Shown here: positions 1,025-19,815 of the stretch, in pieces
How positions within the stretch are numbered: the stretch's first letter is position 1
How the letters are laid out: each line of letters begins with the position of its first letter
Assembly: GCA_964632945.1 (NCBI GenBank)
Contig: CAZWCX010000028.1
Span: 711-64,710 of the forward strand
DNA from: an uncultured Planctomycetia bacterium
GTDB lineage: Bacteria; Planctomycetota; MHYJ01; WSZJ01; CAZWCX01
Direction: 5' to 3'
DNA length: 64,000 nt
The notes under the pieces: model-generated
Databases searched by the model: none
What the model was told of the DNA's origin: nothing
What the model saw: only the letters and a program-made list of their open reading frames with translations
Program-made: the position numbers and the translations under genes

Positions 1025-3073
1025 CTACTCCACCAACGCTTTCAACAGCGCCTCGCGGGGATCACTGTAGAACTGGATGTCGATCTTCGTCGCCATGTCG
1101 TCCGACAAGTTCACGAGCTGCTTCCGCGTGGTGACCGGCATCAAGAGCCGCGTGGCCCCCTTCTCGACGGCCATCTCTGCCACGCCCACCGCATTGTGCA
1201 CCTGGTCTACGGATCCGCCCAAGTTCAACGCCCCGACAACGATGATCCCGCCCTTCAGGCTCTTCTCCAGGAGACCGCTGCACAGCCCGAGGAGTGCCGG
1301 GAGTCCGAGACCACTCCCGCCCTTCGACACGTCAAAGGCGCGGAGTTGCACCACGAACTCATGCGACCTCGGGTCGCGGTCGCCCACCAGGGCCTTGCCC
1401 CGTGCGTAGAGATTCTGTTCGGCGCACTTCACGCTCTCGCGGAATGCAGGCGGCGTCGGCTGGTTCAAGATCCGCACGCCCCCGCCCGGCCCCACGCCTA
1501 CCTCGATCCGGAAGAGACCGGGGTGCTCGTCCTGGCCACCCGAGCTGATGGCCCACACCTGCCCCGGCGGCAGCGGATCCGACCCGATGCTGTCCTCGCG
1601 CTGTAGCTCCGGCGTGACCACGAACTTCTCGACGCCGTCCATTCCGAGTTGGTAGCTGAAGTGCGTGTTGCGGAACTCGGCCGAGCCGATCCGCTTCTGC
1701 TGCTCCTTCACCCGCCGCCGAATCTCCATCGCCAGCCGCACCGCCCATTCGAGGACCTCGTCGCTGACCGGCGTCTCCGGGTTCGGGTACATGAGCTTCA
1801 AGAGTCCCGCCACCGTCTTGTTCACCGCCGTCGTGTCGCGCCCGCTCAAGGCCCCACCATAGAACACCCGCCCTTGAAGCACCGCCACCCTGCTCTGGTC
1901 CCGGAGTCGATGCCAGCACTCGGACAGAAAGTCGCTCACGAGCCCGAAGTGGTCGGTGAGGTGCTGCTGGGCGTGGATCTTCGGCGCGTCCCACCCGGGC
2001 AGATAGCCGTGGATTCGGTCCATGAGCGCCGTGTCGTCGCGCATCTCCGGGGGCATTGGCCCGAACAGGTGCCCGACCCGCTGCTGGTGCTCGACGTCCA
2101 CCTCGAAGTTGCCGACCATCATGATCCCGCCGTCGGCGCGGATGCTCTCCTTCCCCCGGCTGAACTCGCCGCTTTCCATGTACCCCTTCATGATATTGAC
2201 GCCGTCCTTCTGGTCGAAGGAGACACCGGAGATTTCGTCGAAGCAGACGACGTCGTACTGGCACACGAGGCCGCGCTGCCCGGAGGCGTTGTTCACGAAC
2301 ATGCGAGCCACCGTCGCCTTCCCGCCGGAGACCAAGTGGGCATACGGCGACACCTGCTGAAAGAGGTGGCTCTTTCCCGTGCCCCTCGGCCCGAGTTCGA
2401 CCGCGTTGTAATTCCGCTCGACGAACGGGACCATCCGAAGCAGGAGCATGTTCCGGGCACGGTCCGAGAGCTTCTCGGGCTCCATGCCGATGCTCCGGAG
2501 CAGGAACAGTTTCCACTCATCCGCCGTGAACAGGTCTCGGCCCCGCTTGAGCAGGTCCAACGAGTCGCGCTTGGAAAGTTGGACTTCGCGGAGGCTCTCC
2601 ACTCCGAAAGGCCGACCGTTCTCCTCCGTGGCGATGGTCGCATCGTACGTGAGATTCACCTCGGCGTAGAAGCCCCCAGTCAGCATCCGCTCATGCTCCT
2701 GGACGAGCTTGGGCTCGATGCGCACGTCCTTGAGGAGCAGGCTGGGCAGCTCCGCCAGGTAGGAGTCCGTCTTGGCGTCCAGCCTCGCCCGGATCAGGTC
2801 GATGATCCGCACCGATCCCTTCTCGCGTGCTCTCGCCTTGAACAGCTCCTCCTCCCCAGCGCGAACGGCCCGGTCGGCGAGCTGCCGCTCCACGACCTTC
2901 AGGCCCTCCTTGATCTCTTCCTCGTTCACCGTGGCGCAGTAACGGCCCAGCAGGAATTCGACGACGTACGTCGGGACGGGGTACTGGCCCTTGAATTTGC
3001 GGACCAGGTCCTTGCGGACGATGAAGCCGTCAAATCCCTTGGCGGCGAGTTGATCGAGAGCGTCGAGTTCCAT
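1025..3073 (-). CDS. brxL: BREX Lon-like protease BrxL
   Basis: 682 aa with an AAA+ P-loop (GPRGTGKSHLF) and a C-terminal Lon-protease-like domain. Last gene of the BREX-1 order. Confidence 0.9.
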   Translation of the reverse strand: MELDALDQLAAKGFDGFIVRKDLVRKFKGQYPVPTYVVEFLLGRYCATVNEEEIKEGLKVVERQLADRAVRAGEEELFKARAREKGSVRIIDLIRARLDAKTDSYLAELPSLLLKDVRIEPKLVQEHERMLTGGFYAEVNLTYDATIATEENGRPFGVESLREVQLSKRDSLDLLKRGRDLFTADEWKLFLLRSIGMEPEKLSDRARNMLLLRMVPFVERNYNAVELGPRGTGKSHLFQQVSPYAHLVSGGKATVARMFVNNASGQRGLVCQYDVVCFDEISGVSFDQKDGVNIMKGYMESGEFSRGKESIRADGGIMMVGNFEVDVEHQQRVGHLFGPMPPEMRDDTALMDRIHGYLPGWDAPKIHAQQHLTDHFGLVSDFLSECWHRLRDQSRVAVLQGRVFYGGALSGRDTTAVNKTVAGLLKLMYPNPETPVSDEVLEWAVRLAMEIRRRVKEQQKRIGSAEFRNTHFSYQLGMDGVEKFVVTPELQREDSIGSDPLPPGQVWAISSGGQDEHPGLFRIEVGVGPGGGVRILNQPTPPAFRESVKCAEQNLYARGKALVGDRDPRSHEFVVQLRAFDVSKGGSGLGLPALLGLCSGLLEKSLKGGIIVVGALNLGGSVDQVHNAVGVAEMAVEKGATRLLMPVTTRKQLVNLSDDMATKIDIQFYSDPREALLKALVE

Positions 3074-3075
3074 GC

Positions 3076-5466
3076 CTATTCCTCACCACCGACGGTGGTC
3101 GGCTCTTTCGCCACCACGCGGCCCTCCGCATCCAGAAGGACGACCACCGCTGCGGCCCCCTGATGCGTGTCGTCGGCGAAGAGGGTCGCCGCGCCGTCGG
3201 TCCCGACCGGACGGGCTTTCCTTTCTTCGGGATCAGCCAGCAACGATGTCCCGGGATCCGCTGCCTTTCCTCGCAGGTCCGCGCTGTGCCCGAGCGGTTC
3301 CCCTTCGACGACGACCTTGCAGACCAGTCGCTTCCAAGCTATCGACTTGATCGAGATCCGGCCTTCCTTCCGTGCGGCAGCCCGTACGACCAGCGACGGG
3401 ACGACGCACTCCTGAACGGAAAGCCCGCCGTGAGTGTACTCGGTTCCGTGCTTGAAGCAAGCGATGCCCCGCGCCACGGCAACGCGATGTTCGGCACTCC
3501 ATGTCCAGGGAACGGTCACGGCGTCGGGCGTGGCAGTCTTCTTCAGGGTCGCACAACGCCCCCAGCGGGTCTCCGTGAGGAATTTCGGCAGCTCTACCTT
3601 TGGAAGCCCACCGGGAAGCAGGAGCCAGCCGTGGTCTGTGACCACGCGGACTTCTCGCCAACCGGCCTCCAAAAGGCCACGGATTCGCGCCGCGAGTCCT
3701 TCCACCTCCTCCTCGATGCGCCACGCCAGCTTCCAGCCCTGGTCGTGCCCCATCCGGTCAAGGCTGCCGTACTCCGTCCAAGCACGACCCTCGGGATCGC
3801 CGCCCTCGTTCGCGCCAAGGACTTGGATGGTTGCTTCGCCCAGAAGCTGCTTGAACCTGTCGCTTGTCAGTTCCTTTCCGGTGGCGGCAATCGTCGGCCT
3901 GAACTCGTCACCCAGACTCGAATTGCTGAGGAGGCCAGCGATCGGCGAGGCTGCCGGTTTCGCTGTCGGCGTCACCGTCGGCATCGCCGCCCAACGCCTC
4001 CCGCGATCGACCTTGACGCCCGCGCTTTCGAGGGCCGCCACCACCTTCTGGCCAACGTCGAAGCGTAACCCGTCGGCGAACAGCACGCAGCACCCCTTCG
4101 GGAGGTCTTCAGGCTTGCCGCTCGGCGTGGCGCAAGGTAGCGCCGCAGAATTCTCAGCGACCTTCTGAAGCTGTTCCGCCCCGTCCTCCAACCACGTCCG
4201 ATACATGCCGCACACGGCGGTTCGCACGGCGACCACGTCCGCTGGTTTTCGAACTATGGCGAGTGCATCGAGAACCGCAGCATCCGCCTTCCATCCCCAT
4301 TCGGCGTACTGCTCCGCCATGGCCTCCGGAGTCGAGCCTCCGAGCGTTCGTTCCGTCGCCAAGGCGAGTACGGCCAGGAACTCCAAGGCCCCTGCCAAGG
4401 GCGAGTCGCCCAGCTTCGACCAGACGCAAGCACGACGCGCGCCGTGCTGCTTCTCCAGCTCCGCGATCCCCTTTCGGGCGACAGTAGGTGGCTTCTTGCC
4501 GACCTCGACGAGGTCCTTCCGCAGCGAGTCTTCCAGTCCCTCGTTGTCCTGGGGCCAGACTGGCGCGTCGGCGTCAAACATACTCGGGGCGGTCTTCGGC
4601 CTGGCCCGGCGGAGCAGCTCTTTCAAGTTCGGGTAGAGTGTAGGGGCCTCCTGGAATCGCCGCCAGACGTGTGCCCAGTGTCCGCGTCCCTGGCCCTTCA
4701 CGCCGAGGGACTCGCCAGCGGTCAGCTCACCGTCCTTCTCCGGATCGAACTTGTACTTCTGCTTGCAGACGGCCCGGAAGGAACCCCACCCGGCGTCGTC
4801 CATGCGACCTCGGACCTCCTTCGGATCGTTCAGCCAGGTGAGGAGATCGCGTACCGGATCCTCGGTCATCAGACTGTTGAAGAACTCGGCATCGAGACGC
4901 TTGTTTCGCAGTTGATCCACGGGCATGTCCGCCAATCGCACCGCCGCTCGCAACAGTGCCTCGGCGGTGGCGTCATCCCGCGCCACTTCCAGCCCGAGGC
5001 CACCATTCTTGGTCTGGAGGAAGGCCGCAAGCGTCCAGTCCTTGCCGTTCTGTTGCGTCCAGACGACGCCGCGAAACTGAAGCTCAACCAGAGGTCGAAG
5101 CGGTGGCGGGCAACTCTCGACGGCCCGGAGTGCCTGCCTGCTCACGCCCGGCAGGTAGATCACCGGGACAACCTCCGGAGCCCAGGTGGCCTCGGGCAGG
5201 GATCGACCCAGCATGCACCGCAACCAGATCGCCGGGCCGGTCTGCGTGGCCGGATCGTGGTCCCCGAAGGTCAGGAAGTGGGCGAGCCGCTGTCGAAGTC
5301 GCGGGACCAGTGCCAGCCACTGACGGTCTTCGTCCGCCCAAAGAATGGCGGCGGGGGCAACCATGTCATCGTGGTTGCACGCCGACATGCCGGACAACGC
5401 TCCGAGGAGCGCGTCGAACACGGTCGCGCGCGTGAACCGTTGGGTCGCCGAGCCATCGGCAGTCAT
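3076..5466 (-). CDS. pglZ: BREX alkaline-phosphatase superfamily protein PglZ
   Basis: 796 aa with the PglZ signature ...VRVVTDHGWLLLPGG.... Its start overlaps the upstream stop in ATGA. Confidence 0.9.
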   Translation of the reverse strand: MTADGSATQRFTRATVFDALLGALSGMSACNHDDMVAPAAILWADEDRQWLALVPRLRQRLAHFLTFGDHDPATQTGPAIWLRCMLGRSLPEATWAPEVVPVIYLPGVSRQALRAVESCPPPLRPLVELQFRGVVWTQQNGKDWTLAAFLQTKNGGLGLEVARDDATAEALLRAAVRLADMPVDQLRNKRLDAEFFNSLMTEDPVRDLLTWLNDPKEVRGRMDDAGWGSFRAVCKQKYKFDPEKDGELTAGESLGVKGQGRGHWAHVWRRFQEAPTLYPNLKELLRRARPKTAPSMFDADAPVWPQDNEGLEDSLRKDLVEVGKKPPTVARKGIAELEKQHGARRACVWSKLGDSPLAGALEFLAVLALATERTLGGSTPEAMAEQYAEWGWKADAAVLDALAIVRKPADVVAVRTAVCGMYRTWLEDGAEQLQKVAENSAALPCATPSGKPEDLPKGCCVLFADGLRFDVGQKVVAALESAGVKVDRGRRWAAMPTVTPTAKPAASPIAGLLSNSSLGDEFRPTIAATGKELTSDRFKQLLGEATIQVLGANEGGDPEGRAWTEYGSLDRMGHDQGWKLAWRIEEEVEGLAARIRGLLEAGWREVRVVTDHGWLLLPGGLPKVELPKFLTETRWGRCATLKKTATPDAVTVPWTWSAEHRVAVARGIACFKHGTEYTHGGLSVQECVVPSLVVRAAARKEGRISIKSIAWKRLVCKVVVEGEPLGHSADLRGKAADPGTSLLADPEERKARPVGTDGAATLFADDTHQGAAAVVVLLDAEGRVVAKEPTTVGGEE

Positions 5467-5831
5467 GGGGCACCTGCTATCGGTCGTACCCGGATCTTGC
5501 GGTCGCTGATGACAATGAACTGCCCGTTCCCGTGGGCCTCCACGGTCGGCCAGGCCTCTGCGAGGCGCTTCAGGCGTGAGGCCAGGTCGGGGGTGTCCAG
5601 GCGGACAAGCAGCACGCCAGAAGAAGAAAGGCGCCGGTGGAAGACGAGTTCCCCGAAGTCCTTGTCGTCGGTGATGACTACCCGACCCTCGCGTTGGGCA
5701 AGGGCCAGAACGTCGTCGTCAGACTCGCCGGGCAGTCCCTCCGCAGCGTAGAGGACATCGTGGCCCTGGGCGCGCAGCCAGGCAACGATGCCGCCGTGGA
5801 GGTTTTCGTCTGCCAGGAGCTTCATGTGCAT
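5463..5831 (-). CDS. DUF5615 (PIN/Mut7-C-like) putative toxin
   Basis: 122 aa (MKLLADENL...DVL...LALAQREGRVVITDDKDFGELV) matches DUF5615. Paired with the DUF433 gene 4 nt upstream. Confidence 0.8.
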   Translation of the reverse strand: MHMKLLADENLHGGIVAWLRAQGHDVLYAAEGLPGESDDDVLALAQREGRVVITDDKDFGELVFHRRLSSSGVLLVRLDTPDLASRLKRLAEAWPTVEAHGNGQFIVISDRKIRVRPIAGAP

Positions 5832-5835
5832 TCCG

Positions 5836-6066
5836 CTATTGGTAGAGGATCTCTTCCATCCCGATCACGGAAGCGGCGTAGAGGAGAGCGGCTCGGATGT
5901 GCTCAGGGGTGAGACGCGGGTGCCCCTGGAGCAGTTCTGCTTCCGGCATGCCTCGGCCCAGTTCCGCGAGGACGTGCTCTACAGTGATCCGGGTCCCCTT
6001 GAAGGTGGGCTTGCCCATCATGACTTCGGGTCGTTCGACGATGTACTCGCGCCAGTCCATGCTCAT
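5836..6066 (-). CDS. DUF433 putative antitoxin
   Basis: Internal Met of ORF 5836..6297 (MSMDWREYIVERPEVMMGKPTFKGTRITVEHVL...) matches DUF433. The ATG at 6066 overlaps the pglX TGA. Confidence 0.8.
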   Translation of the reverse strand: MSMDWREYIVERPEVMMGKPTFKGTRITVEHVLAELGRGMPEAELLQGHPRLTPEHIRAALLYAASVIGMEEILYQ

Positions 6067-9000
6067 GACTTCTCCTTCCTCCGCGAAGTCGGAGCTTCGC
6101 GGGCGGCCCGCTTTTCGGCCAGGGTCAGGTGGTGGTCGTTGATGCGCTCGCCGTGGAAGACATGATACCACGGTGCGGTCGCGGGGTCCTTGCCCCGGTC
6201 CTTCCGCCAGTGGACGTTCGGCGTCTTGCGGAGGACCTCCGCCTCGACGAAGGGACGGATGTTCATCCGCACGCCATCGTTCAGGTCGGGTTCCCACCCG
6301 ATGGCTTGCGCTTCGAGCGGCTTCCAGCGCACGAAGATGTCATGGGGCTTCTCCCCGTCGGCGATGAGCTTGAGACGACCTTGGAGGTCCTTGGCTGCGG
6401 CGAGCCGAACGTCGGCCCCGGCCGCGCCGCGCTTGGCGTCCTCTTCCTGGCGGCGGATCCAGTCGCCCAGGTAGGTGTAGATCAGCTTGTCGAGCAGTTG
6501 CCGGTCGAGCCGGTGGTAGTTCACGAGGGCGTGGAAGCCGTCCTTCCGACCGTCCCAGATGTGCCAGATGAACGGGCGGTGGTGGAACAGCTTGCAGTGC
6601 TGATCAAAGAAGCCATCGTGGAGCCATTCGTCGAGGCTCTTTGCCGCGAATCCCACAGCGGCAAGAAGTTGGTCGAGCTTGGAGGGCGTCCAGTCCTTCG
6701 CGCATGCGGCGGCAAGGAGGTCGCGGAGACGTTCCGACGCTGGGCGCTCCTTTCCGACGACGGGAAGGCATACGATGCCATCATCGTCAGCGTGGGCTTC
6801 TAGGCCGTCGAGGCCGAGGGCTGGACAGTCGGGGAAATCGGAGCCCGTCTGGCGGGGCCAGCGGTAACCCACGAGACGGGCCACGGCGACTTGCAGCGGG
6901 TGCTCCGAACCCTTAGGATGTCCGCAGAACAGCCACTGCGTCGGGTCATCGGAATGGGGCTTGGGGAGGCCGTCTGGGTACCTAGCTGCGGCGACCTTTT
7001 GCCAGCGGGCGAGGTCGAAGGGGACTTTGACAAGGGTAATGTTCGTGACTTTCAGGGTCTGATCGACCTGCCGAATGGCTTGGTGAAACTCCGAAGACGA
7101 TGCGAAGCACCAAATGGCCGCTGTGAGTACATCATCGTAGGGAAGGAGGACAGCAGCGTTCTTGTCGAACCGATCACCCAGATATAGCGTGCAGGGCAGC
7201 TCTCCGATCTGGCTGACGAGTATACCCTTCTTGTTCCACGCCATTCCACCAGCGAGGATCGCTTCACCACGGCTCCCACGATCGCAGAGAGTGCCGCGCC
7301 CCTGCTCCCAGAAGACGATCTGTTCCATTCCACCAAACGTGCGCGTATCCTCCACCGTGGTCTGAAGAAACTCCCAGTCACAACCGCGCTCCGACAGTTC
7401 CCAAAACTGACGAAAGAAGTAAGGACTATCCTTACTTCCAAGCCCGTGAACCCCGTGAGCGTACTTCGATAAGAGGGCGAATCCCGGAACGTCCGCGAGC
7501 GTCACTCTTGCATCTGGATTCCGGAGCTGGCTGCTCTGTGCTACCAGAACGACCTCCCCCCCCTCCATGCCCTCCATGCACCGGAGCAGGTTCGCCTTCA
7601 CCTCCGGCTTTCTTGCATCCGACACATCCAATCCAGCAATTGCATGGCCGTCGCGGATTGCCGCGGATAGAACAAGCAAGGCCGCGTTCACGATCTCTCC
7701 GCTAATCGTGGAGAATGCCCCTGGTCCCAACCGAGCAGCGAGGTTCCACGAACACCTCTCCAGCAGCATCTGGCGGAGGCTCGTGTAGGTCGTCAGAAAG
7801 AGCCAATTCTGCGGTGTGACAAGAGCTGTAGTCGCGGCCTGTGAACAGAACTCCAGACAGCGCAGAACAAACGCGGTGGCTAGGTCCGCCTTGCCTAGCG
7901 GGTAGTGGGCCAGTAGGCACTCTTGAATAACCTCATCTTGTTTCCCTCGCCCGAGGTATGGCACATTCGTGATGACCAAGTGGTACTTCGCTGCGAGCAT
8001 CTCGGCTGCGTGCGCCACGCCCTGGGCCATAACGCCCATCTCGACCGCCTGCGGGTCGCCTTTGACCTTCTCCTTCTGGAGTGCCTTTTCGAGGAGAGGT
8101 TGGAGGCTTCCAAAGTCCGCCTCGAACAGGTCGCCCGGCCGGACGGCGCGATGCGGGTCGATCAGACTCCCGAGTTCGGGGGCTTGCTGGAAGAGATCGT
8201 ACAGCCGCTCCAAACCCGCCCGCAGCCTCGCATCTCCATTTGCCAGGGCCAGCCATTCTTCCTTCTTCCCCGCAACGGCCAGGCCGGAGCAAGCGACGTT
8301 GACCGACGGCAGGTTCCTATACCCTCCCGCGTCCGGGAACTTCCAGGCGGCCAGCGCGAGGGCGAAGGCGGCGATCTGCGTGCAGCGAGCATCCAGCTCC
8401 AGTCCATGCACGTTATCCTTGAGCACGGCCTCGCACGCATCCCGCGCCGAGAGCCGCTCCTCCTGCATTCGGACCCTGACCAGGAGGTCGAAAACGGCGA
8501 CCAGGAAATGACCCGAGCCGCAGCAGGGGTCAAGTATCCTCAGTTCCGCCGCTCGGGTGGGCCAGCCCGGGAACGTCCCCGCCGCCGGTCGCCCATCGGA
8601 TAGAAATCGCAGGTACTCGAATCCGTAGCCAGGGAGGGCGACCCGCCTACGGCGCTCGTCTTCGGAGACTTCACCCTCTTCCCCGTTCTTTCCATCGAGG
8701 CTCTGGCTCGCACCACTTTTGGGAATCTGGGAGAGTTGAACCGGCGCACCGGACGCCAGCACCTTTCCGGCCCACCACGCGCCGATCGTATTGTGCAGGA
8801 GGAAGAGAACCATGTAATGCTCGGTGAAAAGCTGCGTGACGGCGGGCAGCGTCTCCCCGGTGATCTTGTCGCCGCTGGCATTCACCTCCTGCTTCCGCTT
8901 CGATTGCCAAAACTGGTAGACCCAGCCGAGGCCATCCTCGGCGGTGAAGATCTCCGAAGGCAGGTCCTCCAGGAGCTTTTCCAGTTTCAGCCGGTGCTCT

Positions 9001-9539
9001 GCCGCCAGCGCAACCTGCAAGGCCGGGTCCTCCGGGCGGAAGATCTGCGGAAGCATGCGCGAGGCGAAGCGCCCGGCGACCGTCCAGAGATCCGGTTTGG
9101 CCCCACCCTTCCCACCCGCGCCGGGGGTGGCGGTCTCCTCCGCAGCGAGTTCCTTGCACTCCTGGAGCGTCACGGGGACACCGTGATCGGGGTGGATCAG
9201 CAGGTGGTTCTCGGCGAGGAACCGGGCGAAGAGCATCCGATGCCAGTGCTCATAGGCGACCTCGTGCCCGAGCCGGTGGATGTCCTGCCTGCCCGTACGT
9301 GCATCGAGCACACCTCCGAGTTGACGCGCCTTGGCGCGGAGCTGCCTGCGGAGGGTTCGCTCCTCAGGCTTGAGGTGCGGGAAGGGCTCTCCCTCCTCGA
9401 CCGCGAGCCGCTGGAGTGCCGCCTGCGCGGCGGCCTCGGAGACATCACGGGCCTCGACGACCGTTCGTTCGAGCTGTCGTCGAAGGTCTGGGGGAAGTGG
9501 CGGCATTCGTCGCGTTTGCTCCTGAACCAATGCCGTCAA
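6063..9539 (-). CDS. pglX: BREX N6-adenine DNA methyltransferase PglX
   Basis: 1158 aa with motif I LDPCCGSGHFL and motif IV VITNVPYLG. Its start overlaps the brxC stop in ATGA. Confidence 0.9.
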   Translation of the reverse strand: MTALVQEQTRRMPPLPPDLRRQLERTVVEARDVSEAAAQAALQRLAVEEGEPFPHLKPEERTLRRQLRAKARQLGGVLDARTGRQDIHRLGHEVAYEHWHRMLFARFLAENHLLIHPDHGVPVTLQECKELAAEETATPGAGGKGGAKPDLWTVAGRFASRMLPQIFRPEDPALQVALAAEHRLKLEKLLEDLPSEIFTAEDGLGWVYQFWQSKRKQEVNASGDKITGETLPAVTQLFTEHYMVLFLLHNTIGAWWAGKVLASGAPVQLSQIPKSGASQSLDGKNGEEGEVSEDERRRRVALPGYGFEYLRFLSDGRPAAGTFPGWPTRAAELRILDPCCGSGHFLVAVFDLLVRVRMQEERLSARDACEAVLKDNVHGLELDARCTQIAAFALALAAWKFPDAGGYRNLPSVNVACSGLAVAGKKEEWLALANGDARLRAGLERLYDLFQQAPELGSLIDPHRAVRPGDLFEADFGSLQPLLEKALQKEKVKGDPQAVEMGVMAQGVAHAAEMLAAKYHLVITNVPYLGRGKQDEVIQECLLAHYPLGKADLATAFVLRCLEFCSQAATTALVTPQNWLFLTTYTSLRQMLLERCSWNLAARLGPGAFSTISGEIVNAALLVLSAAIRDGHAIAGLDVSDARKPEVKANLLRCMEGMEGGEVVLVAQSSQLRNPDARVTLADVPGFALLSKYAHGVHGLGSKDSPYFFRQFWELSERGCDWEFLQTTVEDTRTFGGMEQIVFWEQGRGTLCDRGSRGEAILAGGMAWNKKGILVSQIGELPCTLYLGDRFDKNAAVLLPYDDVLTAAIWCFASSSEFHQAIRQVDQTLKVTNITLVKVPFDLARWQKVAAARYPDGLPKPHSDDPTQWLFCGHPKGSEHPLQVAVARLVGYRWPRQTGSDFPDCPALGLDGLEAHADDDGIVCLPVVGKERPASERLRDLLAAACAKDWTPSKLDQLLAAVGFAAKSLDEWLHDGFFDQHCKLFHHRPFIWHIWDGRKDGFHALVNYHRLDRQLLDKLIYTYLGDWIRRQEEDAKRGAAGADVRLAAAKDLQGRLKLIADGEKPHDIFVRWKPLEAQAIGWEPDLNDGVRMNIRPFVEAEVLRKTPNVHWRKDRGKDPATAPWYHVFHGERINDHHLTLAEKRAAREAPTSRRKEKS

Positions 9540-12500
9540 ATGACGACTGGCCCATCGGTGAGTTTGACGCCGATCAGCGTCCTGACCTCCGCCAACCAGC
9601 GATCCAGATCTTCCGGTGTCCTGATGGTCGCGGCTGGGAGTGCAACCCGGACGGCGTTCGGTTCGAGCAGCTTGGCCGCAAGAAGTGCTGCGGTCTGAAA
9701 CCGCGCCGGTAAGGCATCACGATGGGAGCGCCAACTCTCCAGAGACCGCGCAAGCAGCGAAGCGCGCAATGCCTCCTCGGTGCCCAAAGAAAGGGCGACC
9801 AGGGGTTCGATCGCGGCCTGCCGCACGATGGCGTCCCGCTGCTCCGTCGCTAGTTTCTTCCAAGAATCCAGGGCTGCGAGCCCTGCCGATTCGCGCTGGT
9901 GCATGGCGACGCACTCTCCGTGCAGCTTGACGATTTCGGCGCGCAGCCCCGTCGTCAATCGCTCACACAAGGCTGGAACAGGGTCGGGAGTGGCCAGCAA
10001 GGCACATTGTCGACTGATCGCTTCCACCTCCCGCTCTACTTCCCCGTAGACGGGGAGCCCGCGAGCGTGCGAGAGCAGTTCGTTCAGCACTACCCAGCGA
10101 GGCAAACGCTGCCTCGCCAATTCACCCGCCGCTCGCCAATCCCCGGCTTCCTTGGTGAGCCGGGTTCCTTCATTCAGAATCGCAATCAGTTGTTCATTGC
10201 CGCCGAGATTCTGGAGATCCTTGATGTGGGCTGTGTTGGGGCGCAGCGCAAGGGGAGGGGCACCACCTGCTGCATCGGCGAGCCCGAGCATCGCGGTCAG
10301 GAACGACTCCGCCTTGCTGGCTTCTTCGTTGGCCTGGCACTTGATGTCGATGACGTTGTAGAGGTTGCGGAGAGCGATCCGCTGGGACGCCGTGATCACC
10401 GTGACCTCGATACGGAAGTCGGTCACGCCGATCTTCGTGTGGTCCAACCGCGTTCGATCTACCGGCTTTCCATTCTGCGATGCACGGATTTGTCCGGCGG
10501 TGAGGAGGACGAGCAGGGCGGCGTCGATGGCGTCCTGCGACCAGCCGTACTCATTCCCGCCGAATTGCCTTCGGATTTCACTCCCCTTCTTTCCCGTCCC
10601 CACCCAGGCGAGGATGGCGGAGCAGACGGGGTGCTGCTCCGGGCTGCCCTTGTACCCGACGGCTTCAAGGGCGTCCGCCGCCCCAGCCTTCGTGCGCTTG
10701 AGCACTTCCTCCCAGCCCTTCTGGTCGGCAAGGTGGAATTCCGGAAATTGCCGGACGAGTGCCGCCTCCGCACCTTCCCGCACCGCGGTGAGGAGGTCGA
10801 GGGCAGCGATCTCCTGCCCGCCACCGAGAATCACCCGAGCGCCGCCCAGCACCTGGGTCTCGATGACCACTCGCGCGTTCGCCTCCGCTTGCAGGGCCCG
10901 GGTCTCCATGGCAGCCCGGGCGTCGAGCCCCTCGGGAGTCGTCGGGTTCCCTCGGGTATCCAGGGTCTCCTTGGCCGCCTTGGCTTCGGCGATCGTCTTC
11001 TTCAGATCCTCGGCGGCCCGCTTCGGGATGAAGACGGTGATCAGCGGGCTGTCTACGCCTGCGGCGCGGGCCTGTGCGAGGACGTTGCTCTCCGTCTCGT
11101 CCCAACCGTTGCGGATCCAGACCGGGATCGCCTGGCCGCTCGGCTGTGGAGTTTCGCCGAAGAAGGGTTCGAGCTTGCGGAGCACCTTGGTAGTGCCCTG
11201 GAGCAGCTTGATTTCCTTGAGCCGCTCGCCGACCTCACGTTTGAGGAGGTCGGCGCGTTCCTGCGCCATTCGGGCGTTGTCCCCGAGGATCTTCGCGTAC
11301 CGCTCCCGGAAGTCCACGAGCCAGACGGTGCCCTCCTGCGTCTGAAGTTTGTACTCATCCTCGATGCGCAGCAGCCTGCCGGACTTCTCCAGATCCGCCA
11401 GCAAGGCGGGGATCCGCTTCCTCAGATCGGCGCTGCCCGCCTTCAGGTCCTGAACGAGCAAGTCGGCCAAGGTGTCGGCGGTCGCTCGGACTCCCAGATC
11501 CGCCCCGGCCTGTGTGGGCAGCTTGCCGATCAAGAAGACCAGGGCGCACAAGCGGCCTCGGAGCACGTCATCGGCCGAACCGCCAAGAAGCTCGGCGATC
11601 ACGTTGTGAAGTTCCCGAACTAGAACACCACGCTGGAGCAAATCGGTGGCGACCTGGTCGTAGATGAACGAAGCCGGAACGACGTGGCCCAGGGGTTCCG
11701 GGGCCAGGGCGCGGGCGGCTTCATGGGCAATGCGAAGCTGCGTGCGAAGCTGCCCAGTGAGCCCGCCGCTGTCCACCGCACGGAGGATGCGCTCCCAGAA
11801 CCGTTGGCGCACCGGGAGGAGCGGGTAGTCGGTGACGAGCAGTGCCTCGTCCTCTGGGCAGGGGGCGATCTTGGTACTGACGAGGTGCTTGGAAATCTCC
11901 CCGTGGCACGCATCGAGTACGCTGCGGATCTCGGCCTCCCGGTCGGCTCTCTTTTGCAAAACGACCTTGCGAATGACCGTCTCGACATCGGTGTCGGAGA
12001 GGTGGACGTTGCGCGTGAACCGGCCTTTGAGGCGGCTGAGCTGCGCGGTGCTGGTGAGGGCGGCCTGACCGGTGCCGATCACGATGAGCTTGCCATCGAA
12101 TCGCTTGCTGATCGCCTCCACCACCTCTTGGACGGCGTAGGAGCGATCCTGGTCCTCACCGATGTACTGCTGGACCTCGTCCAGGATGATCGCCGTGCAG
12201 GGGAGCTTTCCATTCGTGAGGAGGGCCTCGCGGAGCGCCTTCACCATCTCCTCGATGGTGATCACGTTCTTGGGCGGGAAGGTCTTCTCGATCAGGTGCA
12301 GGGCGGCCTCCGGCGTGGCGGCGATGGCCGGATCCGCCTTGAGGATGCACTTCGCGAGGGGAGTCGAGACGTAGAGATTCCTCACCTCCTCGTCGAAGTC
12401 TTCCCCGGATTTCTTGAGGTCGGCCCTCACACGGTCCAGGAGGCCCTTCGCCTTGAGCCACAAGACGAATCGAGCACCGGGGTAGTCTTCGGGGAGCTGA

Positions 12501-12970
12501 CAGGACCGGAAGACGACCGCCAGGACTGCGAGGGGCACGCTGGCGTTCGCACCGGGGCCGAGGGTCCCCGCGGCAGCATGGAGCCCCCCATTCTGACGGC
12601 CCTTGGTGGACAGTTCCTTGAGCGCGTCCTTGATCTCTGCGGGCAGATTCGCGATACCTCGCGCCGTGGACTTGTCCGGCAGTGCGTAGTCCGTCCAGAG
12701 ATACCGGAGCACCTTGGCAAGGTGGGACTTCCCGCTGCCGTAGAAGCCGCTGATCCAGACGGCGGGCTGTTCCGGCTTGTCGAGATTCCCGAGGTAGGTG
12801 TCGAGCACAATGGAGAGTCCCTTGTGGTACTCCCCCTCGCAGACGAAGGTCCGGAGTTCGTACATGAGGGTGCGGAACTCCGGGTCCGCATCCGTCACGG
12901 CAGCGACGCCGTTGTTGGCGAGGGTGCTCTTCTCCGGGTCCTGGCGGAAGACATCGCGGTTCTTGGTCAA
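9536..12970 (-). CDS. brxC: BREX ATPase BrxC/PglY (start set at TTG overlapping brxB TGA; ORF track extends to 13465)
   Basis: P-loop GFYGSGKSHLAKVL and the conserved N-terminal VFRQDPEKSTLANNGVAAVTDAD. The ORF-track start at 13465 would overlap brxB by 500 nt, so the TTG at 12970 (TTGA overlap) is preferred. Confidence 0.85.
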   Translation of the reverse strand: MTKNRDVFRQDPEKSTLANNGVAAVTDADPEFRTLMYELRTFVCEGEYHKGLSIVLDTYLGNLDKPEQPAVWISGFYGSGKSHLAKVLRYLWTDYALPDKSTARGIANLPAEIKDALKELSTKGRQNGGLHAAAGTLGPGANASVPLAVLAVVFRSCQLPEDYPGARFVLWLKAKGLLDRVRADLKKSGEDFDEEVRNLYVSTPLAKCILKADPAIAATPEAALHLIEKTFPPKNVITIEEMVKALREALLTNGKLPCTAIILDEVQQYIGEDQDRSYAVQEVVEAISKRFDGKLIVIGTGQAALTSTAQLSRLKGRFTRNVHLSDTDVETVIRKVVLQKRADREAEIRSVLDACHGEISKHLVSTKIAPCPEDEALLVTDYPLLPVRQRFWERILRAVDSGGLTGQLRTQLRIAHEAARALAPEPLGHVVPASFIYDQVATDLLQRGVLVRELHNVIAELLGGSADDVLRGRLCALVFLIGKLPTQAGADLGVRATADTLADLLVQDLKAGSADLRKRIPALLADLEKSGRLLRIEDEYKLQTQEGTVWLVDFRERYAKILGDNARMAQERADLLKREVGERLKEIKLLQGTTKVLRKLEPFFGETPQPSGQAIPVWIRNGWDETESNVLAQARAAGVDSPLITVFIPKRAAEDLKKTIAEAKAAKETLDTRGNPTTPEGLDARAAMETRALQAEANARVVIETQVLGGARVILGGGQEIAALDLLTAVREGAEAALVRQFPEFHLADQKGWEEVLKRTKAGAADALEAVGYKGSPEQHPVCSAILAWVGTGKKGSEIRRQFGGNEYGWSQDAIDAALLVLLTAGQIRASQNGKPVDRTRLDHTKIGVTDFRIEVTVITASQRIALRNLYNVIDIKCQANEEASKAESFLTAMLGLADAAGGAPPLALRPNTAHIKDLQNLGGNEQLIAILNEGTRLTKEAGDWRAAGELARQRLPRWVVLNELLSHARGLPVYGEVEREVEAISRQCALLATPDPVPALCERLTTGLRAEIVKLHGECVAMHQRESAGLAALDSWKKLATEQRDAIVRQAAIEPLVALSLGTEEALRASLLARSLESWRSHRDALPARFQTAALLAAKLLEPNAVRVALPAATIRTPEDLDRWLAEVRTLIGVKLTDGPVVI

Positions 12971-13518
12971 TCCACAGCTCCTTTGTACGCCGTGATCGGG
13001 ACCGCCAGGTAGTTCCAACCTTCGTGGCCGTCGAACAGTCGATAGACGTTCTGGTCGTACTGTCCCGGAAAAAAGACCAGGAGCCGACCCGCGATGGCGT
13101 CCTGGATCTGAGCGATCAGGTCGGAAGCGCGGATGAGGCCGAAGAGCGAGCCGATGCCCGAGAGGGCGACGACGGTCTGGCCGTCGGATTCGCGGAGCAG
13201 CTTGAGAATCGGCGCGGCGGCGGCGAGCTTGAAGTCCTTGAAGGCCATTTCCAGCTTTTGTGGCGCGGTGAAGTAGGAGTCCCGGTACTTGTGTCCACCC
13301 ATCCAGCGGGAAAACCCATGTGTCAGGTCGTGGTGAGCCCAGCCATGCTTCGCGTTGCCCGTCGCCAACGCAAACTCGCCAAGGCGGGCGCGGAGTCGGC
13401 GTTCGTCGGACTTGTCGTAGACCGCGAACCAGACCCGTTGGGGTCCGGCGAGCGAGGCGTCCCATGGCAACGAGACGAACTCGGCGTAGGCCTGGATGAG
13501 CCGTTCAATCTGGTTCAC
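12967..13518 (-). CDS. brxB: BREX protein BrxB (DUF1788), GTG start
   Basis: C-terminal 183 aa of ORF 12967..13821 (VNQIERLIQAYAEFVSLPWD...FFPGQYDQNVYRLFDGHEGWNYLA) is the BrxB family. The upstream part of that ORF is low-complexity. Confidence 0.85.
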   Translation of the reverse strand: MNQIERLIQAYAEFVSLPWDASLAGPQRVWFAVYDKSDERRLRARLGEFALATGNAKHGWAHHDLTHGFSRWMGGHKYRDSYFTAPQKLEMAFKDFKLAAAAPILKLLRESDGQTVVALSGIGSLFGLIRASDLIAQIQDAIAGRLLVFFPGQYDQNVYRLFDGHEGWNYLAVPITAYKGAVD

Positions 13519-14218
13519 GGGACGCCTCGATCTCGACCGGTGTGAGGAGTTGGGGGAAACGGACTTCGAGGACGTCGCCCGCGTGACGCAGGTCGAGGAG
13601 GCCCAGGCGAGCGGCTTCGGCGGCAAGGCGGATGACTTCAGCATCTCGGAGATCGAGGACGCGGGTCCAGAGCGTGGCAAGGAGGGCGCGTCCACGGCAC
13701 CGCGTGAGGAAGCCGAGGGCAAGGGCAAAGACGGCGCAGGCTGGAGTGGCGACCGGGTGGGAGCGCGTCTTGGTGGCGCGGCCTGCAAGGTGCCCGGACT
13801 GTGTCCAGGAGGAAGCAGCATTCCGAGCGACTTTGTCGCGGGAGGAAGGTTTCAATCGACCTTCGGTGAGTTCGAGGAGGCACGGGATGAAATCGTGCGC
13901 TGCCATCCGGGTGCCAACGCGAGCCTGTAGCACGGGTTCCGCCGTAGCCCGAAGGAGGGGGTCCCGTGCCAGCGCACAGAGAAGCGCGAGCAGCGGCTGA
14001 CCGGCGGCATCCTGGTCCCACAGGAATCGAAGAATGCGGAAGAGCGTGATGGAAGGATCCAGCCCATAGACTTCTGCGAGTCGCTGGATCGTGAGACGTC
14101 GGGTGGCGATCGTGCGCTTGCCGAGGACGTTGTCCTCGACGGCGACGCGCTGGTAGTCGGCGAGTCGAGCGGACGGAGGGAGGGCGCGCAGGAGATCGGT
14201 TAGTTCGCGGAGCATCAT
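13505..14218 (-). CDS. brxA: BREX protein BrxA (DUF1819)
   Basis: Begins at the internal Met MMLRELTDLLRALPP... of ORF 13505..14491. First gene of the canonical brxA-brxB-brxC-pglX-pglZ-brxL order. Confidence 0.75.
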   Translation of the reverse strand: MMLRELTDLLRALPPSARLADYQRVAVEDNVLGKRTIATRRLTIQRLAEVYGLDPSITLFRILRFLWDQDAAGQPLLALLCALARDPLLRATAEPVLQARVGTRMAAHDFIPCLLELTEGRLKPSSRDKVARNAASSWTQSGHLAGRATKTRSHPVATPACAVFALALGFLTRCRGRALLATLWTRVLDLRDAEVIRLAAEAARLGLLDLRHAGDVLEVRFPQLLTPVEIEASREPD

Positions 14219-14839
14219 GGTCCGGCTGGTGTGGGTGCCCCGCGGGCCGCTGCGGAAGCCGAATCGGTCAGGCCATGGGTCGGCTCCGCCACGGCTGGCC
14301 ATTGCCGAGGACCGCTCGACCACGGAGGAGAATCTCCCTCTGCGCATCCGTCGATCTCTCGATCGCGCCACTGGAAGCCAAAGGCGCCTCGCGATCAGGG
14401 TGGGCCTGATGCGGGCGGGGGGGCCGGGGAGTTGACCGTGGCTCGAATGGGGCCAACGGTCGGTCCACGGCGGCGTGCCGGACCGTATCAAACGGCTCCA
14501 GGGTGGTCAAGGAACGGTCAGGGTGCAGCCGAGGGGTGTGGGTCGGCTGCAAAGTGCATTCGGGAGTGAACCCAGGATTCAGGCTCGGGGCAGATGTACC
14601 CAGGTAGCTGCGGGTGGACTATTGGCGGGGTTGAACACCAGCCCGGCGCTTGCGTTGGTAGCACTTCATGCGAACGCCCCAGGCTACTACGCGACCGATG
14701 ATCGGCGAGCAGCGCGGAAGTGGCGAACGATCCGACGGACTTCAGACAACTCCACCGACGACGGGTGGCGGGTGTGCCCGCGGATCTGTGAAGGGGTCTC
14801 AAGTGCCCCGGCGTCAGATCAGCGGTTGGATTCGGCAAG
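14219..14839 (-). promoter_or_regulatory. long noncoding leader/promoter region upstream of brxA
   Basis: 620 nt with only low-complexity ORFs between the HTH gene and brxA. No promoter motifs were confidently identified. Confidence 0.3.
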
Positions 14840-15319
14840 TCAGGTCCGGGAGTCTCCTGTCAATTTCCCCCCAAGTCCAAACTCGTGGAGCCTCTCGAGA
14901 ATCTCCTGCCTTCGTCGAAGGAGTTCCGAAGTGGGAAGGGAGGAAAGGTCGGCCGAGGCCTCTTTGTCTTCTGGCTCCGTAGCCGGACCGAAAAGCCGAA
15001 GGCCCTTGAGCACTTCGAGGCTGGTGCGGACCCGGAGACCCAAGTCGTCCGATTCCTCGATCGCGACGCGTACGCTTTCGATGGCCGAGCCGACAAGGCC
15101 GAGTAGCTGGCCACGGGCGACAGTGGCCATTTCAACTCGCGTTTGTTCCAGCGCGGAGACAAAGTCGGGGTCGCGAATCCACCGATGGACTGTTGAGCGA
15201 GCGATCCCCAAATCGGACGCGACCTTAGATATTGGCGTGCCGACGACCACGGCTTGGAGGACGCGTGCCCTTTTCGCTGGGAGATCCACGAACCCAACGA
15301 CTGTCTCAATCTGTCGCAT
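14840..15319 (-). CDS. small helix-turn-helix domain protein (putative regulator)
   Basis: 159 aa with a clear HTH (ISKVASDLGIARSTVHRWIRD). Same strand as, and immediately upstream of, the BREX operon. Confidence 0.6.
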   Translation of the reverse strand: MRQIETVVGFVDLPAKRARVLQAVVVGTPISKVASDLGIARSTVHRWIRDPDFVSALEQTRVEMATVARGQLLGLVGSAIESVRVAIEESDDLGLRVRTSLEVLKGLRLFGPATEPEDKEASADLSSLPTSELLRRRQEILERLHEFGLGGKLTGDSRT

Positions 15320-15505: not shown

Positions 15506-15736
15506 CCGGCGCCTCCCCGGCCGATGTCTCCCGGTACTATTAGCCCCCGGGCGACGCACGTCGCCTTACCGGGTTCGCGTGCCTTCATTTTGTTTCCCTT
15601 GCGGCCCCATCTCGGCCCGGTTGCCCGGGACTGGGCTCTCGTCACTCTGCCGGAAGGGGTGGACCTCCAGGTCGTTCGACCCTCTCAAGTGCGCGCAAAT
15701 CGCATCCTGGCACCTCCGGTCCCCCCACTCGACACC

Positions 15737-15955
15737 TCAGTTCGGCTTCTTCAGATCCGCGTGCTCCATCCCTCCGGTCGAATGTCGCCAGCTCTTCTCC
15801 AGCGGGAGGCGAGACTCGCGCGGCAACTGCTCAACGCGCCTTGCGCGCCGTCTCCGCCACCTCCTCGAAGCAGGCGCGGATCGTCGGCAGGTGCAGGGGT
15901 GCAGGGTCTTGAGGTTCTCCTGCACAAGGGTGCGCTGCTCGGTCGCCTTACTCAT
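15737..15955 (-). CDS. small Arg-rich basic protein (72 aa), hypothetical
   Basis: Internal ATG of ORF 15737..16024 is preceded by a strong SD (ggggaggtggcccATG). It lies 185 nt downstream of the RT stop on the same strand. The Arg-rich product has a low-complexity look. Confidence 0.35.
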   Translation of the reverse strand: MSKATEQRTLVQENLKTLHPCTCRRSAPASRRWRRRRARRVEQLPRESRLPLEKSWRHSTGGMEHADLKKPN

Positions 15956-16142
15956 GGGCCACCTCCCCGGCCGCAATCGGGCACAGGCGTCGTACACGCC
16001 CACGTTCACGGGGTCGACCTTCACGTCGGTCGGCAGCTCGGGCCGACCCGCCGCCCAACATCAACTTCGGGTTCACTGCATCCTTGAACCGGTGGTGCGG
16101 CTGATCCACGTCCACTCTCGTGGCCGCGCCCCGCCTGGGTGT

Positions 16143-17681
16143 TTACCCCGGCCCAGTGACTTTCGGAACGCCCATCTCGTCTGCGACGCGATTCAGGTCC
16201 TTCTCGCGCAGGTCGCGTCGCATCGAGTCGTGGTAGACGCCCGGAGTGTCCCGCCGGTCCCACCGTACATCGGCGGGGATGGCGTCGCGCAGGGTCGCCC
16301 ACAGCAGGACAGCAGCCAGGCGGCGACCCGCGTCGATGGGACCTCCCGATAGTAGAGTGCGGATCGAGCTTCGACATCCAAGGCAATTGAAGGAGAGGAC
16401 CATCCGTCGCGCCTTGCGCGACTCGTCCAGTGGGGTCGTGATGTGGATGTCGTCCGGATCTAGGCTCCCGAGGTCGGCGCACAGGTCCGCGAGGACGGCC
16501 GGGTCCAGGGGGTCGCGACCGGGGTGGTCTCGACGGAAGGCGTCTGCCGCCTCGACCACCCGGCGGGGTCGGGGGCTCCGGGACCACGGGCCGCCGGACC
16601 CGTGCAAGACGGTTTGCACGAAGGAATGCGTCACTCCCGGCGCGAAGCAGACGCTGATGAATGGGGTATTCGTCGTGCCCTTGGTGGGTACGTGGAAGTT
16701 CCTGCGCCAGCACGCCTTGCAGCGTGACTCCCCCTCGCCTGGCGCACGGTAGGGGTGATCCGTTGTTGCTCCCGCGGTAAGAGAAGCGTCAACCGCTCTC
16801 TCACCCTCCTTGCGAGGAAGAGCACCATAGACGGCCACCCGGTCTTCCTCCCCGTCCTTAGGCGGATCGCAGGGAGTATGGAGACGACTATTTCCGCATC
16901 CCGCGGTGCCATCCCCAGGGGAGCGCGTGAAGGTCTCGCAGCCGCATAGGCTGTGGTAGTCGGTTTCGATCTTCCCGGCAGGGATTGTCTTTCGCACTTG
17001 ACCGTCGGCCGCGACGCGGAAGTCCACACCGAGCACCGTCATCTCCACCGCCCGCAGGTCCCCAACCTCGCACTCGACTCCGAGGCCTACGGCCCCCAGC
17101 GTGCGGGCGATCGCGTACGCGCCTGCCCACGCCTCGCCGCGGGTGAGGCACGGCACGATCATGTCGTCCGCATATCTGATGAGGCCGGGAAGACGGAGCC
17201 GCGAATCCATCTCCCCGAGCACCAATTCGGCGAGGATCGGGGACATCGGACATCCCGCGACGATCCCCGTCGGGACGACGCGACACCGACGCTCGATCTC
17301 CTCGACCCAATCCCCAACGATACCGCCGTCGGCCAGGCGCCGCCGGAGAACACCCAAGTCGATTGAGTCGAAGCACTTCACCACGTCCGCGTGCAGCAGC
17401 CAGGTCGCCCCGGTGGCAACCGCGCGGGTGATGTCCAGGACGGCGCGGACGGCACCCCTGCCCGCCCGGCAGTAGCTCCGCGGTGACAGGAGCGGCGTGA
17501 GCGGCGCCACGAGAATCTCATCAAGGATCTTGCGGCCGAGATCCCGGTCCTTCCTCCGCGGGCACCAGCGAGTCTTGCCCCGCGAATCCAAGACTCGGTT
17601 CGGGGTTCGCCACCGGTGCATTCGGATGCGATCGAATAGGGTGCGATCTACCATGTCTAGTAGAACCTTGACATAGAACAC
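16143..17681 (-). CDS. reverse transcriptase with Cys-rich C-terminal extension
   Basis: RT motifs 1-7 present: SYCRAGRGA, HADVVKCFDSID, AGCPMSPILAELVL, YADDMIV, LGVDFRV. Motif 0 is missing. The ~260-aa C-terminal part has CxC...C...C and CxxC-x5-H clusters. GTG start at 17681; an ATG (MVDRTLF) lies at 17654. Confidence 0.85.
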   Translation of the reverse strand: MFYVKVLLDMVDRTLFDRIRMHRWRTPNRVLDSRGKTRWCPRRKDRDLGRKILDEILVAPLTPLLSPRSYCRAGRGAVRAVLDITRAVATGATWLLHADVVKCFDSIDLGVLRRRLADGGIVGDWVEEIERRCRVVPTGIVAGCPMSPILAELVLGEMDSRLRLPGLIRYADDMIVPCLTRGEAWAGAYAIARTLGAVGLGVECEVGDLRAVEMTVLGVDFRVAADGQVRKTIPAGKIETDYHSLCGCETFTRSPGDGTAGCGNSRLHTPCDPPKDGEEDRVAVYGALPRKEGERAVDASLTAGATTDHPYRAPGEGESRCKACWRRNFHVPTKGTTNTPFISVCFAPGVTHSFVQTVLHGSGGPWSRSPRPRRVVEAADAFRRDHPGRDPLDPAVLADLCADLGSLDPDDIHITTPLDESRKARRMVLSFNCLGCRSSIRTLLSGGPIDAGRRLAAVLLWATLRDAIPADVRWDRRDTPGVYHDSMRRDLREKDLNRVADEMGVPKVTGPG

Positions 17682-17783
17682 AAGTTGGTTGGCCTTGTGC
17701 GCACTACCGCCGACGTGTGTCCGCGTCTCGCCCCATCCTGTCTGTCTTGGCGCAGTTGCGCCAAGTCGGGCGTAGTATGCTGG

Positions 17784-18296
17784 TTATCCATCTCCCAAGT
17801 GGATCTGCCGCGAGACTCGCTGGGCGGCCGTATCGATAATCCCCGCGACCCGCTGGAGATCCTCGGTAGTCATCGCCTCGATCTCGTCCTCATATCGGTC
17901 CGGATCAGTCGCGACCATTTCTGCGCGCTTGCTCACTGCTGCCCGCGCTCTCGCGGCAAGTCGCAGCAGCGAGGACTGCAGTCGCAGGAGGGCTTTGTAG
18001 CCAGGCTCGGTGACACAGATCGACTGCCAGACTATCTGATCATCTCCTGCAGGTACTTGATTGGGTTGTTCCACCACTGCGTCCTTTCGTGCAGGCACTT
18101 GATCGGAGCTGCGTCTAAACACCCTGCCGCAGTTGGCAGGCTGAAACTGCGCGGTTGGAGCTATCAACGGACAACCACTACGAAATCCGCACGGGTCCTC
18201 GCACTTGATTATACAATTGTCGCAAATAAAAACAGGTCGCAGAATTCGCGCCCGTTCTCGCGGCTCTAAGCAAACCGGGTATGCTCGTCTCCTCAT
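17784..18296 (-). CDS. Cys-rich hypothetical protein (170 aa), in frame with the downstream RT across one TAA
   Basis: ORF has an N-terminal Cys cluster (CDNCIIKCEDPCGFRSGC) and a helical C-terminal half. Stop TAA at 17784-17786. The 34 codons to the RT start contain no stop and are in the same frame. Confidence 0.4.
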   Translation of the reverse strand: MRRRAYPVCLEPRERARILRPVFICDNCIIKCEDPCGFRSGCPLIAPTAQFQPANCGRVFRRSSDQVPARKDAVVEQPNQVPAGDDQIVWQSICVTEPGYKALLRLQSSLLRLAARARAAVSKRAEMVATDPDRYEDEIEAMTTEDLQRVAGIIDTAAQRVSRQIHLGDG

Positions 18297-18668: not shown

Positions 18669-18712
18669 ATGGGGTTCAAGAGGTCGCAGGTTCAAATCCT
18701 GTCGCCCCGACT
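18669..18712 (+). other. tRNA-like T-arm plus acceptor 3' strand (possible tRNA 3' fragment or att remnant)
   Basis: Sequence gcagg-TTCAAAT-cctgt then cgccccg-a matches a T-stem, a 7-nt T-loop and an acceptor 3' strand. No complementary 5' acceptor strand was found within 90 nt upstream. Confidence 0.35.
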
Positions 18713-19784: not shown

Positions 19785-19815
19785 CGCGTGCGCCGGGCGG
19801 GGGAGGAGGCCGGAG

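Follow-up and report, generated by a model that had tools for sequence, protein, structure and literature searches.

Does a reverse transcriptase (RT) gene that stands beside a BREX operon and far from the curated RT classes encode a new defence system, or is it a relic? This question is raised by a 512-codon open reading frame (ORF; NCBI protein P0001) with a GTG start at 16143..17681 on the reverse strand of a 64,000-nucleotide stretch of DNA, hereafter the window, from an uncultured Planctomycetia bacterium (assembly GCA_964632945.1, contig CAZWCX010000028.1). The original prediction had read the locus as an orphan RT module of unclear class and as a candidate new or poorly described system of the defence-associated RT (DRT)/UG type. 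Our analysis revealed that the RT gene is genuine, and that its core is, as far as sequence comparison and predicted fold can tell, of the group II intron/CRISPR-associated RT lineage and not of the UG/Abi/DRT, retron or diversity-generating retroelement (DGR) lineages. We found no demonstrable new defence system; at most, the locus is a case of a group-II-like RT that has been domesticated within a defence island. We favour, with about even confidence, the reading that this copy is stranded and impaired, has probably lost its 5' end and descends from a so far unsampled RT lineage.

The gene is best defined by its fingers-palm core, which spans aa 35-232 (16986..17579, reverse strand), covers motifs 1-7 and was recovered by Pfam, a custom profile, AlphaFold2 (AF2), Foldseek, codon statistics and conserved columns. 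The ORF matched Pfam RVT_1 over aa 40-202 (E = 6e-14), and a custom profile of the 40 nearest relatives that excluded the query itself aligned to aa 35-232, from motif 1 to motif 7, with 131 bits (E = 2e-41), in agreement with the initial assignment of the frame as an RT. The catalytic residues D99, D172 and D173 are present, the YADD box occupies aa 170-173, and query and relatives agree without exception in nine columns (D99, F104, G139, G143, S147, L155, D159, R169 and D172). AF2 modelled aa ~20-235 as fingers and palm with pLDDT values of 85-96. Coding potential was assessed with a codon model trained on the four large BREX genes and validated by leave-one-out, in which true frames averaged 0.37-0.38 per codon (standard deviation 0.12, 5th percentile 0.18) and the in-phase antisense "shadow" frame 0.17. 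Codons 1-234 of the RT scored +0.31 in this model, and GC content was strongly periodic by codon phase over aa 1-227 (p = 6e-13). The motifs had been described as canonical throughout, which is correct for their span and for the intact YADD, but not for motif 4, which reads VAG...SPILAE, or for the usual motif-6 lysine, to which the query has no counterpart.

The lineage assignment follows from sequence and structure searches alike. In a ranking of Protein Data Bank sequences, the query was closest to the Cas6-RT-Cas1 chain 7kft (42 bits), followed by group II RTs (25-29 bits), G2L4 (19.5 bits) and UG15 (13.7 bits); retron, DGR and DRT9 chains were absent from the matches at E<=10. Foldseek searches with the modelled core gave group II intron RTs as top matches, namely the GsI-IIC RT and the Roseburia and Eubacterium intron-encoded proteins (IEPs), with E about 1e-12. 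Among the 149 best matches of an exhaustive protein search, 63 carry Cas1, 24 a maturase X domain and 62 neither of the two, and at least seven of these nearest relatives, including P0020, P0042 and P0049, are fused to an AEP primase domain (Pfam AEP-TOTE), which shows how readily this RT lineage swaps its C-terminal partners.

Curated class models, by comparison, all scored far below their cut-offs. The best NCBIfam model was TIGR04416 (group II RT/maturase) with 56.4 bits against a cut-off of 300, and Drt4 (22 bits, cut-off 450), Drt3a (21 bits, cut-off 200) and the retron St85 model NF038233 (19 bits, cut-off 235) followed at a lower level. With PADLOC, the generic RT model led with 73 bits ahead of the CRISPR-acquisition RT model with 51 bits; UG/DRT models reached at most 32 bits (UG26) and retron RT models at most 24 bits. 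Motif 4 of the query, VAGCPMSP, is neither retron-like nor of the DGR form [I/L]GxxxSQ, and the latter had been recognised at the outset. The exclusion of retrons, DGRs, group II intron IEPs, RT-Cas1 proteins and characterised DRT classes, on which the original prediction was built, is thus borne out: neither the profile models nor Rfam returned a group II IEP with its intron RNA, a retron or a known DRT class. The proposed DRT/UG affinity, in turn, had to be given up, as the core sides with group II and CRISPR RTs in the Protein Data Bank ranking, in Foldseek and among the 149 relatives. The protein does resemble UG/Abi/DRT RTs (DRT1-9, AbiK, AbiA, Abi-P2) in being a stand-alone RT with a C-terminal extension that is not a thumb and in lying in a defence island, but its RT core is of another lineage, and neither a known DRT accessory domain, the alpha-repeat included, nor a conserved non-coding RNA (ncRNA) was found with it.

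A closer operational fit is provided by the group-II-like (G2L) RTs, which are closest to group II intron RTs, lack intron RNA and branch beside the CRISPR RTs (review PMC8632793). Judged from its sequence context, with neither intron RNA nor cas genes, the RT fits the G2L category in this operational sense, its nearness to a defence system included. Its similarity to the solved G2L4 is weak and confined to aa 138-201 (19.5 bits, E = 0.005). The solved G2L4 chains measure about 410 aa, and Foldseek aligned just the RT core of our model to them; unlike G2L4, the query has neither RT0, the N-terminal region that contains motif 0, nor a thumb, and it carries an unrelated tail of 280 aa.

Comparison with the relatives showed that parts are missing on both sides of the core. 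The profile alignment begins at position 77 of 375, and the relatives have about 45 extra N-terminal residues that include the motif-0 region. A profile of this N-terminal region gave no match, either within the ORF or over the 200 codons that precede it (-1.2 bits), which agrees with the earlier statement that motif 0 is lacking. We also considered whether a motif 0 might lie concealed before the in-frame TAA, as 'AAQRVSRQIHLGDG' and 'GWGETRT' resembled it by eye, and rejected this on the basis of the same profile score in a region without codon signal. On the C-terminal side no thumb follows the palm, and aa ~238-341 are instead predicted by AF2 to be disordered. The absence of maturase/X and endonuclease (En) domains, likewise claimed before, was confirmed by Pfam, which gave no GIIM or HNH match, and by a custom X-domain profile that was negative in six frames.

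The core itself is altered at positions that hardly vary elsewhere. Of 46 columns in which at least 75% of the relatives agree, the query retains 34, a value in the low tail. Position 142, a glutamine in 39 of 40 relatives, is an alanine in the query alone (PQG to VAG), and position 152, an asparagine in all 40, is a glutamate (LAN to LAE). Scores of 116 bits against an RT-Cas1 profile and of 108 bits against a maturase-type profile compare with cross-scores of 189-359 bits between these two classes, and by this measure the RT core is on a long branch, at an equal and large distance from maturase-type and Cas1-type RTs.

Downstream of the core, the ORF consists of two further parts. The first, at the place where the thumb is expected, is a middle segment rich in Cys, Gly, Pro and Thr (aa 233-304, 16770..16985, reverse strand), which matched no family, is predicted to be disordered and scored -0.04 in the codon model; its RNA fold gave z = -1.8. 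Residues 228-304 form the sole part of the ORF without codon periodicity (p = 0.5), and most of the cysteine clusters at aa ~246-326 lie within them. These clusters had been described as zinc-finger-like, a label that is hard to maintain for a non-periodic, predicted disordered stretch without any family match. The second part, an orphan C-terminal block (aa 305-512, 16146..16769, reverse strand), is in phase with the RT and weakly coding-like and has no homologue. Its codon score of +0.15 is the best of the six frames and lies under the 5th percentile of true genes, while its GC periodicity is clear (p = 2e-6), in the RT phase and with GC content higher at the first than at the second codon position. 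No confident fold was obtained for this block, with pLDDT values that stayed under 50 when the whole protein was modelled and a value of 39 for the block by itself.

The ORFs on either side of the RT, which had been presented as a Cys-rich and a small Arg-rich ORF, did not withstand the same analysis. The upstream ORF (170 aa, 17784..18296, reverse strand) scored -0.01 and is not supported as a gene, and the downstream ORF (95 aa, 15737..16024, reverse strand) gave a marginal +0.09, compared with a codon score of 0.37 for true genes; its GC content at third codon positions (GC3) is 0.83. Neither has a homologue, and the protein collection in which the RT is deposited returned neither of them when searched. 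The upstream ORF lies in the RT frame; between the two are a single TAA and 34 sense codons, which contain no start codon and score -0.14. A read-through fusion of upstream ORF and RT was rejected, as the shared frame is a 1-in-3 coincidence and the upstream part shows no coding signal and no homologue. Codon statistics thus give strong backing to the RT core, weak backing to aa 305-512 and none to the middle segment or the upstream ORF; the flanks look non-coding or decayed. As a side observation, the region 15680-16100 shows strong GC phase periodicity, and the gene caller applied to the Logan contig picked an ORF on the opposite strand there (15524-16087); the downstream 95-aa ORF may be a decayed gene.

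RNA structure was found on one side of the RT. The 820-nt spacer downstream of it (15320-16142) showed no excess structure (z -1.5 to +2). On the RT-sense strand of the upstream region, by contrast, better folds than in shuffles were obtained for several 150-nt segments (z -2.3 to -3.1). These structured patches include hairpins near a tRNA fragment described below as well as a hairpin whose 8-bp stem is perfect and whose loop measures 4 nt, CTTGGCGC-AACT-GCGCCAAG (17746..17765, reverse strand); it is located 65-85 nt ahead of the RT start, in a 119-nt stretch with a fold z of -2.7. Rfam 15 gave no match to group II intron RNA, retron RNA or any other family, neither at E<=1 in 13000-21000 nor at the gathering score in the whole window, and no sigma-70-like promoter was found on the RT strand. 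With flanking ORFs that look spurious or marginal, no demonstrable ncRNA and, for want of a second locus, no co-conserved gene, the proposed designation of the locus as a module or system could not be upheld.

No second member of the family was detected at any depth of search. A word-indexed search of 5.8 billion clusters returned the query itself alone, as a singleton cluster, and an exhaustive phmmer search of 1.84 billion representatives gave, besides the query, RT-domain matches only (best E = 3e-14), with all matches listed falling within aa 8-296. The C-terminal 291 aa alone had no match at E<=10 and none in Pfam, PHROGs or plasmids, and scans of genome and metagenome contigs yielded RT matches only, at 25-31% identity. 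Apart from the contig studied here, the locus was recovered only in two short assemblies, of the runs SRR14787579 and SRR14787580, which are 100% and 99.94% identical. As there is no second locus beyond these identical contigs, co-conserved neighbours, covariation and the ratio of nonsynonymous to synonymous substitutions (dN/dS) are not available for this gene. These results point to an RT lineage that is not represented in current databases, whether the gene is active or a relic.

We now turn to the reading that we favour, in which the RT is a stranded and probably truncated copy and forms part of the cargo of a tRNA-integrated BREX type 1 island, at its attR-proximal edge. The copy would derive from an RT lineage not yet sampled, in which an RT core is joined to an unrelated tail. 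A rearrangement near codon ~15 may then have removed the 5' end; the change in composition and periodicity near this codon makes such a loss probable. The gene would now probably be weakly active or inactive, a remnant within the island's decaying end and not a working, transferable defence system. If the gene is still translated, the resulting polymerase would lack a thumb and have a changed deoxynucleoside triphosphate (dNTP) pocket, the glutamine of PQG being replaced by alanine. Poor processivity and poor dNTP binding would be expected of such an enzyme.

Several observations weigh against this reading. The ORF of 512 codons has no interruption, the codon statistics of its RT core are of full gene quality, and its last 205 codons are periodic and in RT phase (p = 2e-6). 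We estimate the chance that two unrelated pieces joined via a 70-codon non-periodic spacer would yield such an in-phase tail at about 6%, which makes it probable that the C-terminal block is an original part of the gene. Compared with all known RTs, the protein has many substitutions in an ORF that is still open; this implies long protein evolution and is at odds with long decay, and the lower GC3 in the first ~15 codons also resembles a native translation start. The excess RNA structure on the RT-sense strand upstream of the gene points in the same direction. Finally, RTs outside the group II/CRISPR lineage work without RT0.

The same observations are the natural starting point for the strongest alternative, to which we assign a real but clearly minor chance, namely that the gene is an intact, active stand-alone defence RT and the first member of a new DRT-like system, consisting of a single gene or of the RT with an upstream ncRNA, on a CRISPR-RT/group-II-like core. 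Under this explanation, the place of the thumb would be taken by the Cys-rich spacer and the helical C-terminal block, which would serve as sensor or effector, and infection would trigger DNA synthesis, RNA-templated or self-primed by analogy with CRISPR-associated RTs, leading to abortive infection. The open ORF with its intact catalytic triad and strong core statistics, the periodic C-terminal block in RT phase and the local excess structure upstream are all compatible with an active enzyme. So are the position in a defence island beside BREX and the varied C-terminal fusions (Cas1, AEP, X) of the lineage relatives, and the review PMC8632793 reports that 25% of the G2L RTs known are found near established defence systems. 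However, defence systems normally spread widely, and no second member was found in about 15 billion proteins. The absence of both RT0 and thumb, the loss of the invariant or nearly invariant glutamine and asparagine of motif 4, a middle segment without coding signature and a C-terminal part that AF2 could not fold likewise argue against it, no promoter was found, and an upstream ncRNA is beyond a covariation test in the absence of homologous loci.

A more specific proposal along these lines would take the gene as an intact ORF and as the representative of an unsampled family of stand-alone defence RTs from the CRISPR-RT/group II lineage, which would dispense with RT0 and a canonical thumb and combine a VAG pocket, a Cys-rich spacer, a new helical C-terminal domain and possibly a structured RNA in the ~1 kb upstream; we consider this proposal unlikely. 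Should the gene be active, it would mean that the group II intron/CRISPR-RT lineage was domesticated once more, as a defence-island RT with a minimal polymerase core and a wholly new C-terminal domain, and an RT that works without the glutamine of the PQG motif would be of enzymological interest. Should it be a relic, which is somewhat more likely, the locus would illustrate that the variable end of a BREX island gathers decaying cargo, and that an intact-looking RT ORF in high-GC DNA is insufficient to call a new defence system.

The prominence of CRISPR-associated RTs among the relatives raises the further possibility that the gene is a decayed RT-Cas1 (or RT-AEP) fusion cut off from its CRISPR locus, with the C-terminal ~280 aa as an eroded Cas1. 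The RT cores of this group (RT-Cas1, Cas6-RT-Cas1, 7kft) are indeed the closest by sequence and share the fingers-palm motifs and YADD, Cas1 fusions make up 63 of the 149 nearest relatives, and the ~280-aa tail equals the length of a Cas1 domain. In addition, a BLASTP alignment with the RT-Cas1 protein P0028 extends to aa 296, into the N-terminus of Cas1, a second weak high-scoring segment pair with P0028 lies at the RNRHPP...GLDP region (E = 0.2), and HMMER and hhalign both chose aa 456-480 as the counterpart of the Cas1 pattern "AA..YF...F.gR.rr" (25 residues, P about 0.04). The two candidate alignments are, however, mutually exclusive and not significant, and Cas1 profiles scored about 0 bits or lower throughout. 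Profiles for Cas1, X and AEP, built from the relatives' own C-terminal domains, stayed at about or under 0 bits in six frames across 15300-18800; Pfam gave no Cas1 match at E<=10; and a profile of complete RT-Cas1 proteins covered the RT part only and, up to a domain E-value of 1000, reported no further domain. A degenerate Cas1 in the C-terminal half was rejected on these grounds, as were remnants of an AEP primase or maturase X domain, frameshifted ones included. Unlike CRISPR-associated RTs, the query shows no Cas1 or Cas6 domain detectable by profiles, lacks RT0 and has VAG for PQG and LAE for LAN, its score against the RT-Cas1 profile is about half of what maturase-type relatives reach, and the window contains neither a CRISPR-like array nor cas genes. 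We therefore regard an eroded fusion as very unlikely.

A fragment of a mobile group II intron, with the ORF as an IEP remnant, is scarcely probable and has been largely refuted already. This explanation can draw on the group II intron RTs as best structural matches, on TIGR04416 as the best NCBIfam model and on the 108 bits against the profile of maturase-containing relatives. On the other hand, TIGR04416 stayed at 56 bits against its cut-off of 300, remnants of X or En were found in no frame, and the core is no nearer to maturase-type than to Cas1-type RTs. The query thus differs from group II intron RT/maturases in having no intron RNA domain, as searched at the thresholds given above, no X/maturase, no D/En domain and no RT0.

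A retron or DGR RT with an unrecognised msr/msd or template and variable repeats (TR/VR) is highly improbable, for apart from some excess structure upstream it is suggested by weak inverted repeats around the RT start (14 nt, 17565-17578/17810-17823; 27 nt with 70% complementarity, 17726-17752/18347-18373) that are at chance level (about 0.7 expected, as an estimate) and have one arm inside motif 1 of the ORF, and against it stand retron models at no more than 24 bits (cut-offs about 235), the lack of retron or DGR chains among the Protein Data Bank matches, the form of motif 4 and the absence of any TR/VR-sized repeat, with none >27 nt in 15300-18800.

The island in which the RT lies, on the reading that we favour, is defined by a complete BREX type 1 operon downstream of the RT on the same strand (1025..14491, reverse strand). 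PADLOC identified brxA (13505-14491, 300 bits), brxB (12967-13821, 219 bits), brxC (9536-13465, 1400 bits), pglX (6063-9539, 1557 bits), pglZ (3076-5466, 955 bits) and brxL (1025-3073, 962 bits) in this one operon, all on the reverse strand, which is the gene content of BREX type 1. The operon is context only, and the RT is not among the known BREX components. Between the RT and brxA, a family match assigned a protein of 159 aa to HTH_23 (14840..15319, reverse strand). On the other side of the RT lies a tRNA 3' fragment on the forward strand (18682..18710), which comprises variable loop, T arm and the 3' strand of the acceptor and is unique in the window; ARAGORN and Rfam found no whole tRNA in the window. 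GC content is about 0.62-0.66 to the left of ~19000 and about 0.70 to the right, and the step coincides with the tRNA fragment. The fragment and the rise in GC at this point place the RT at the attR-type end of a tRNA-integrated island. The island is larger than 18.7 kb and extends past the left edge of the window, beyond which the intact tRNA and the integrase must lie. The setting described in the original prediction, a lower-GC island with a BREX neighbour and a tRNA-like fragment, agrees with the GC profile, the PADLOC calls and the fragment at 18682-18710.

Some further features of the island deserve mention. The interior of pglX shows a local dip in GC (0.576 at 7001-8000), compared with about 0.65 in the remaining operon, and an ORF of 316 aa without PADLOC match (71-1021, reverse strand) follows directly downstream of brxL. 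About 140 nt upstream of the HTH_23 gene, two copies of a 20-nt tandem direct repeat, CGACAACTAGAA(T/A)CCCGGGG, are located at 15461-15504 with a spacing of 24 nt and constitute a candidate operator or iteron. Finally, the segment 18432-18656, which adjoins the tRNA fragment on the inner side of this island end, shows excess structure on both strands (z about -2.7 to -3.4), including the hairpin CGGGUGUA-UCUA-CACCCG, and these structures may be att-arm or terminator elements.

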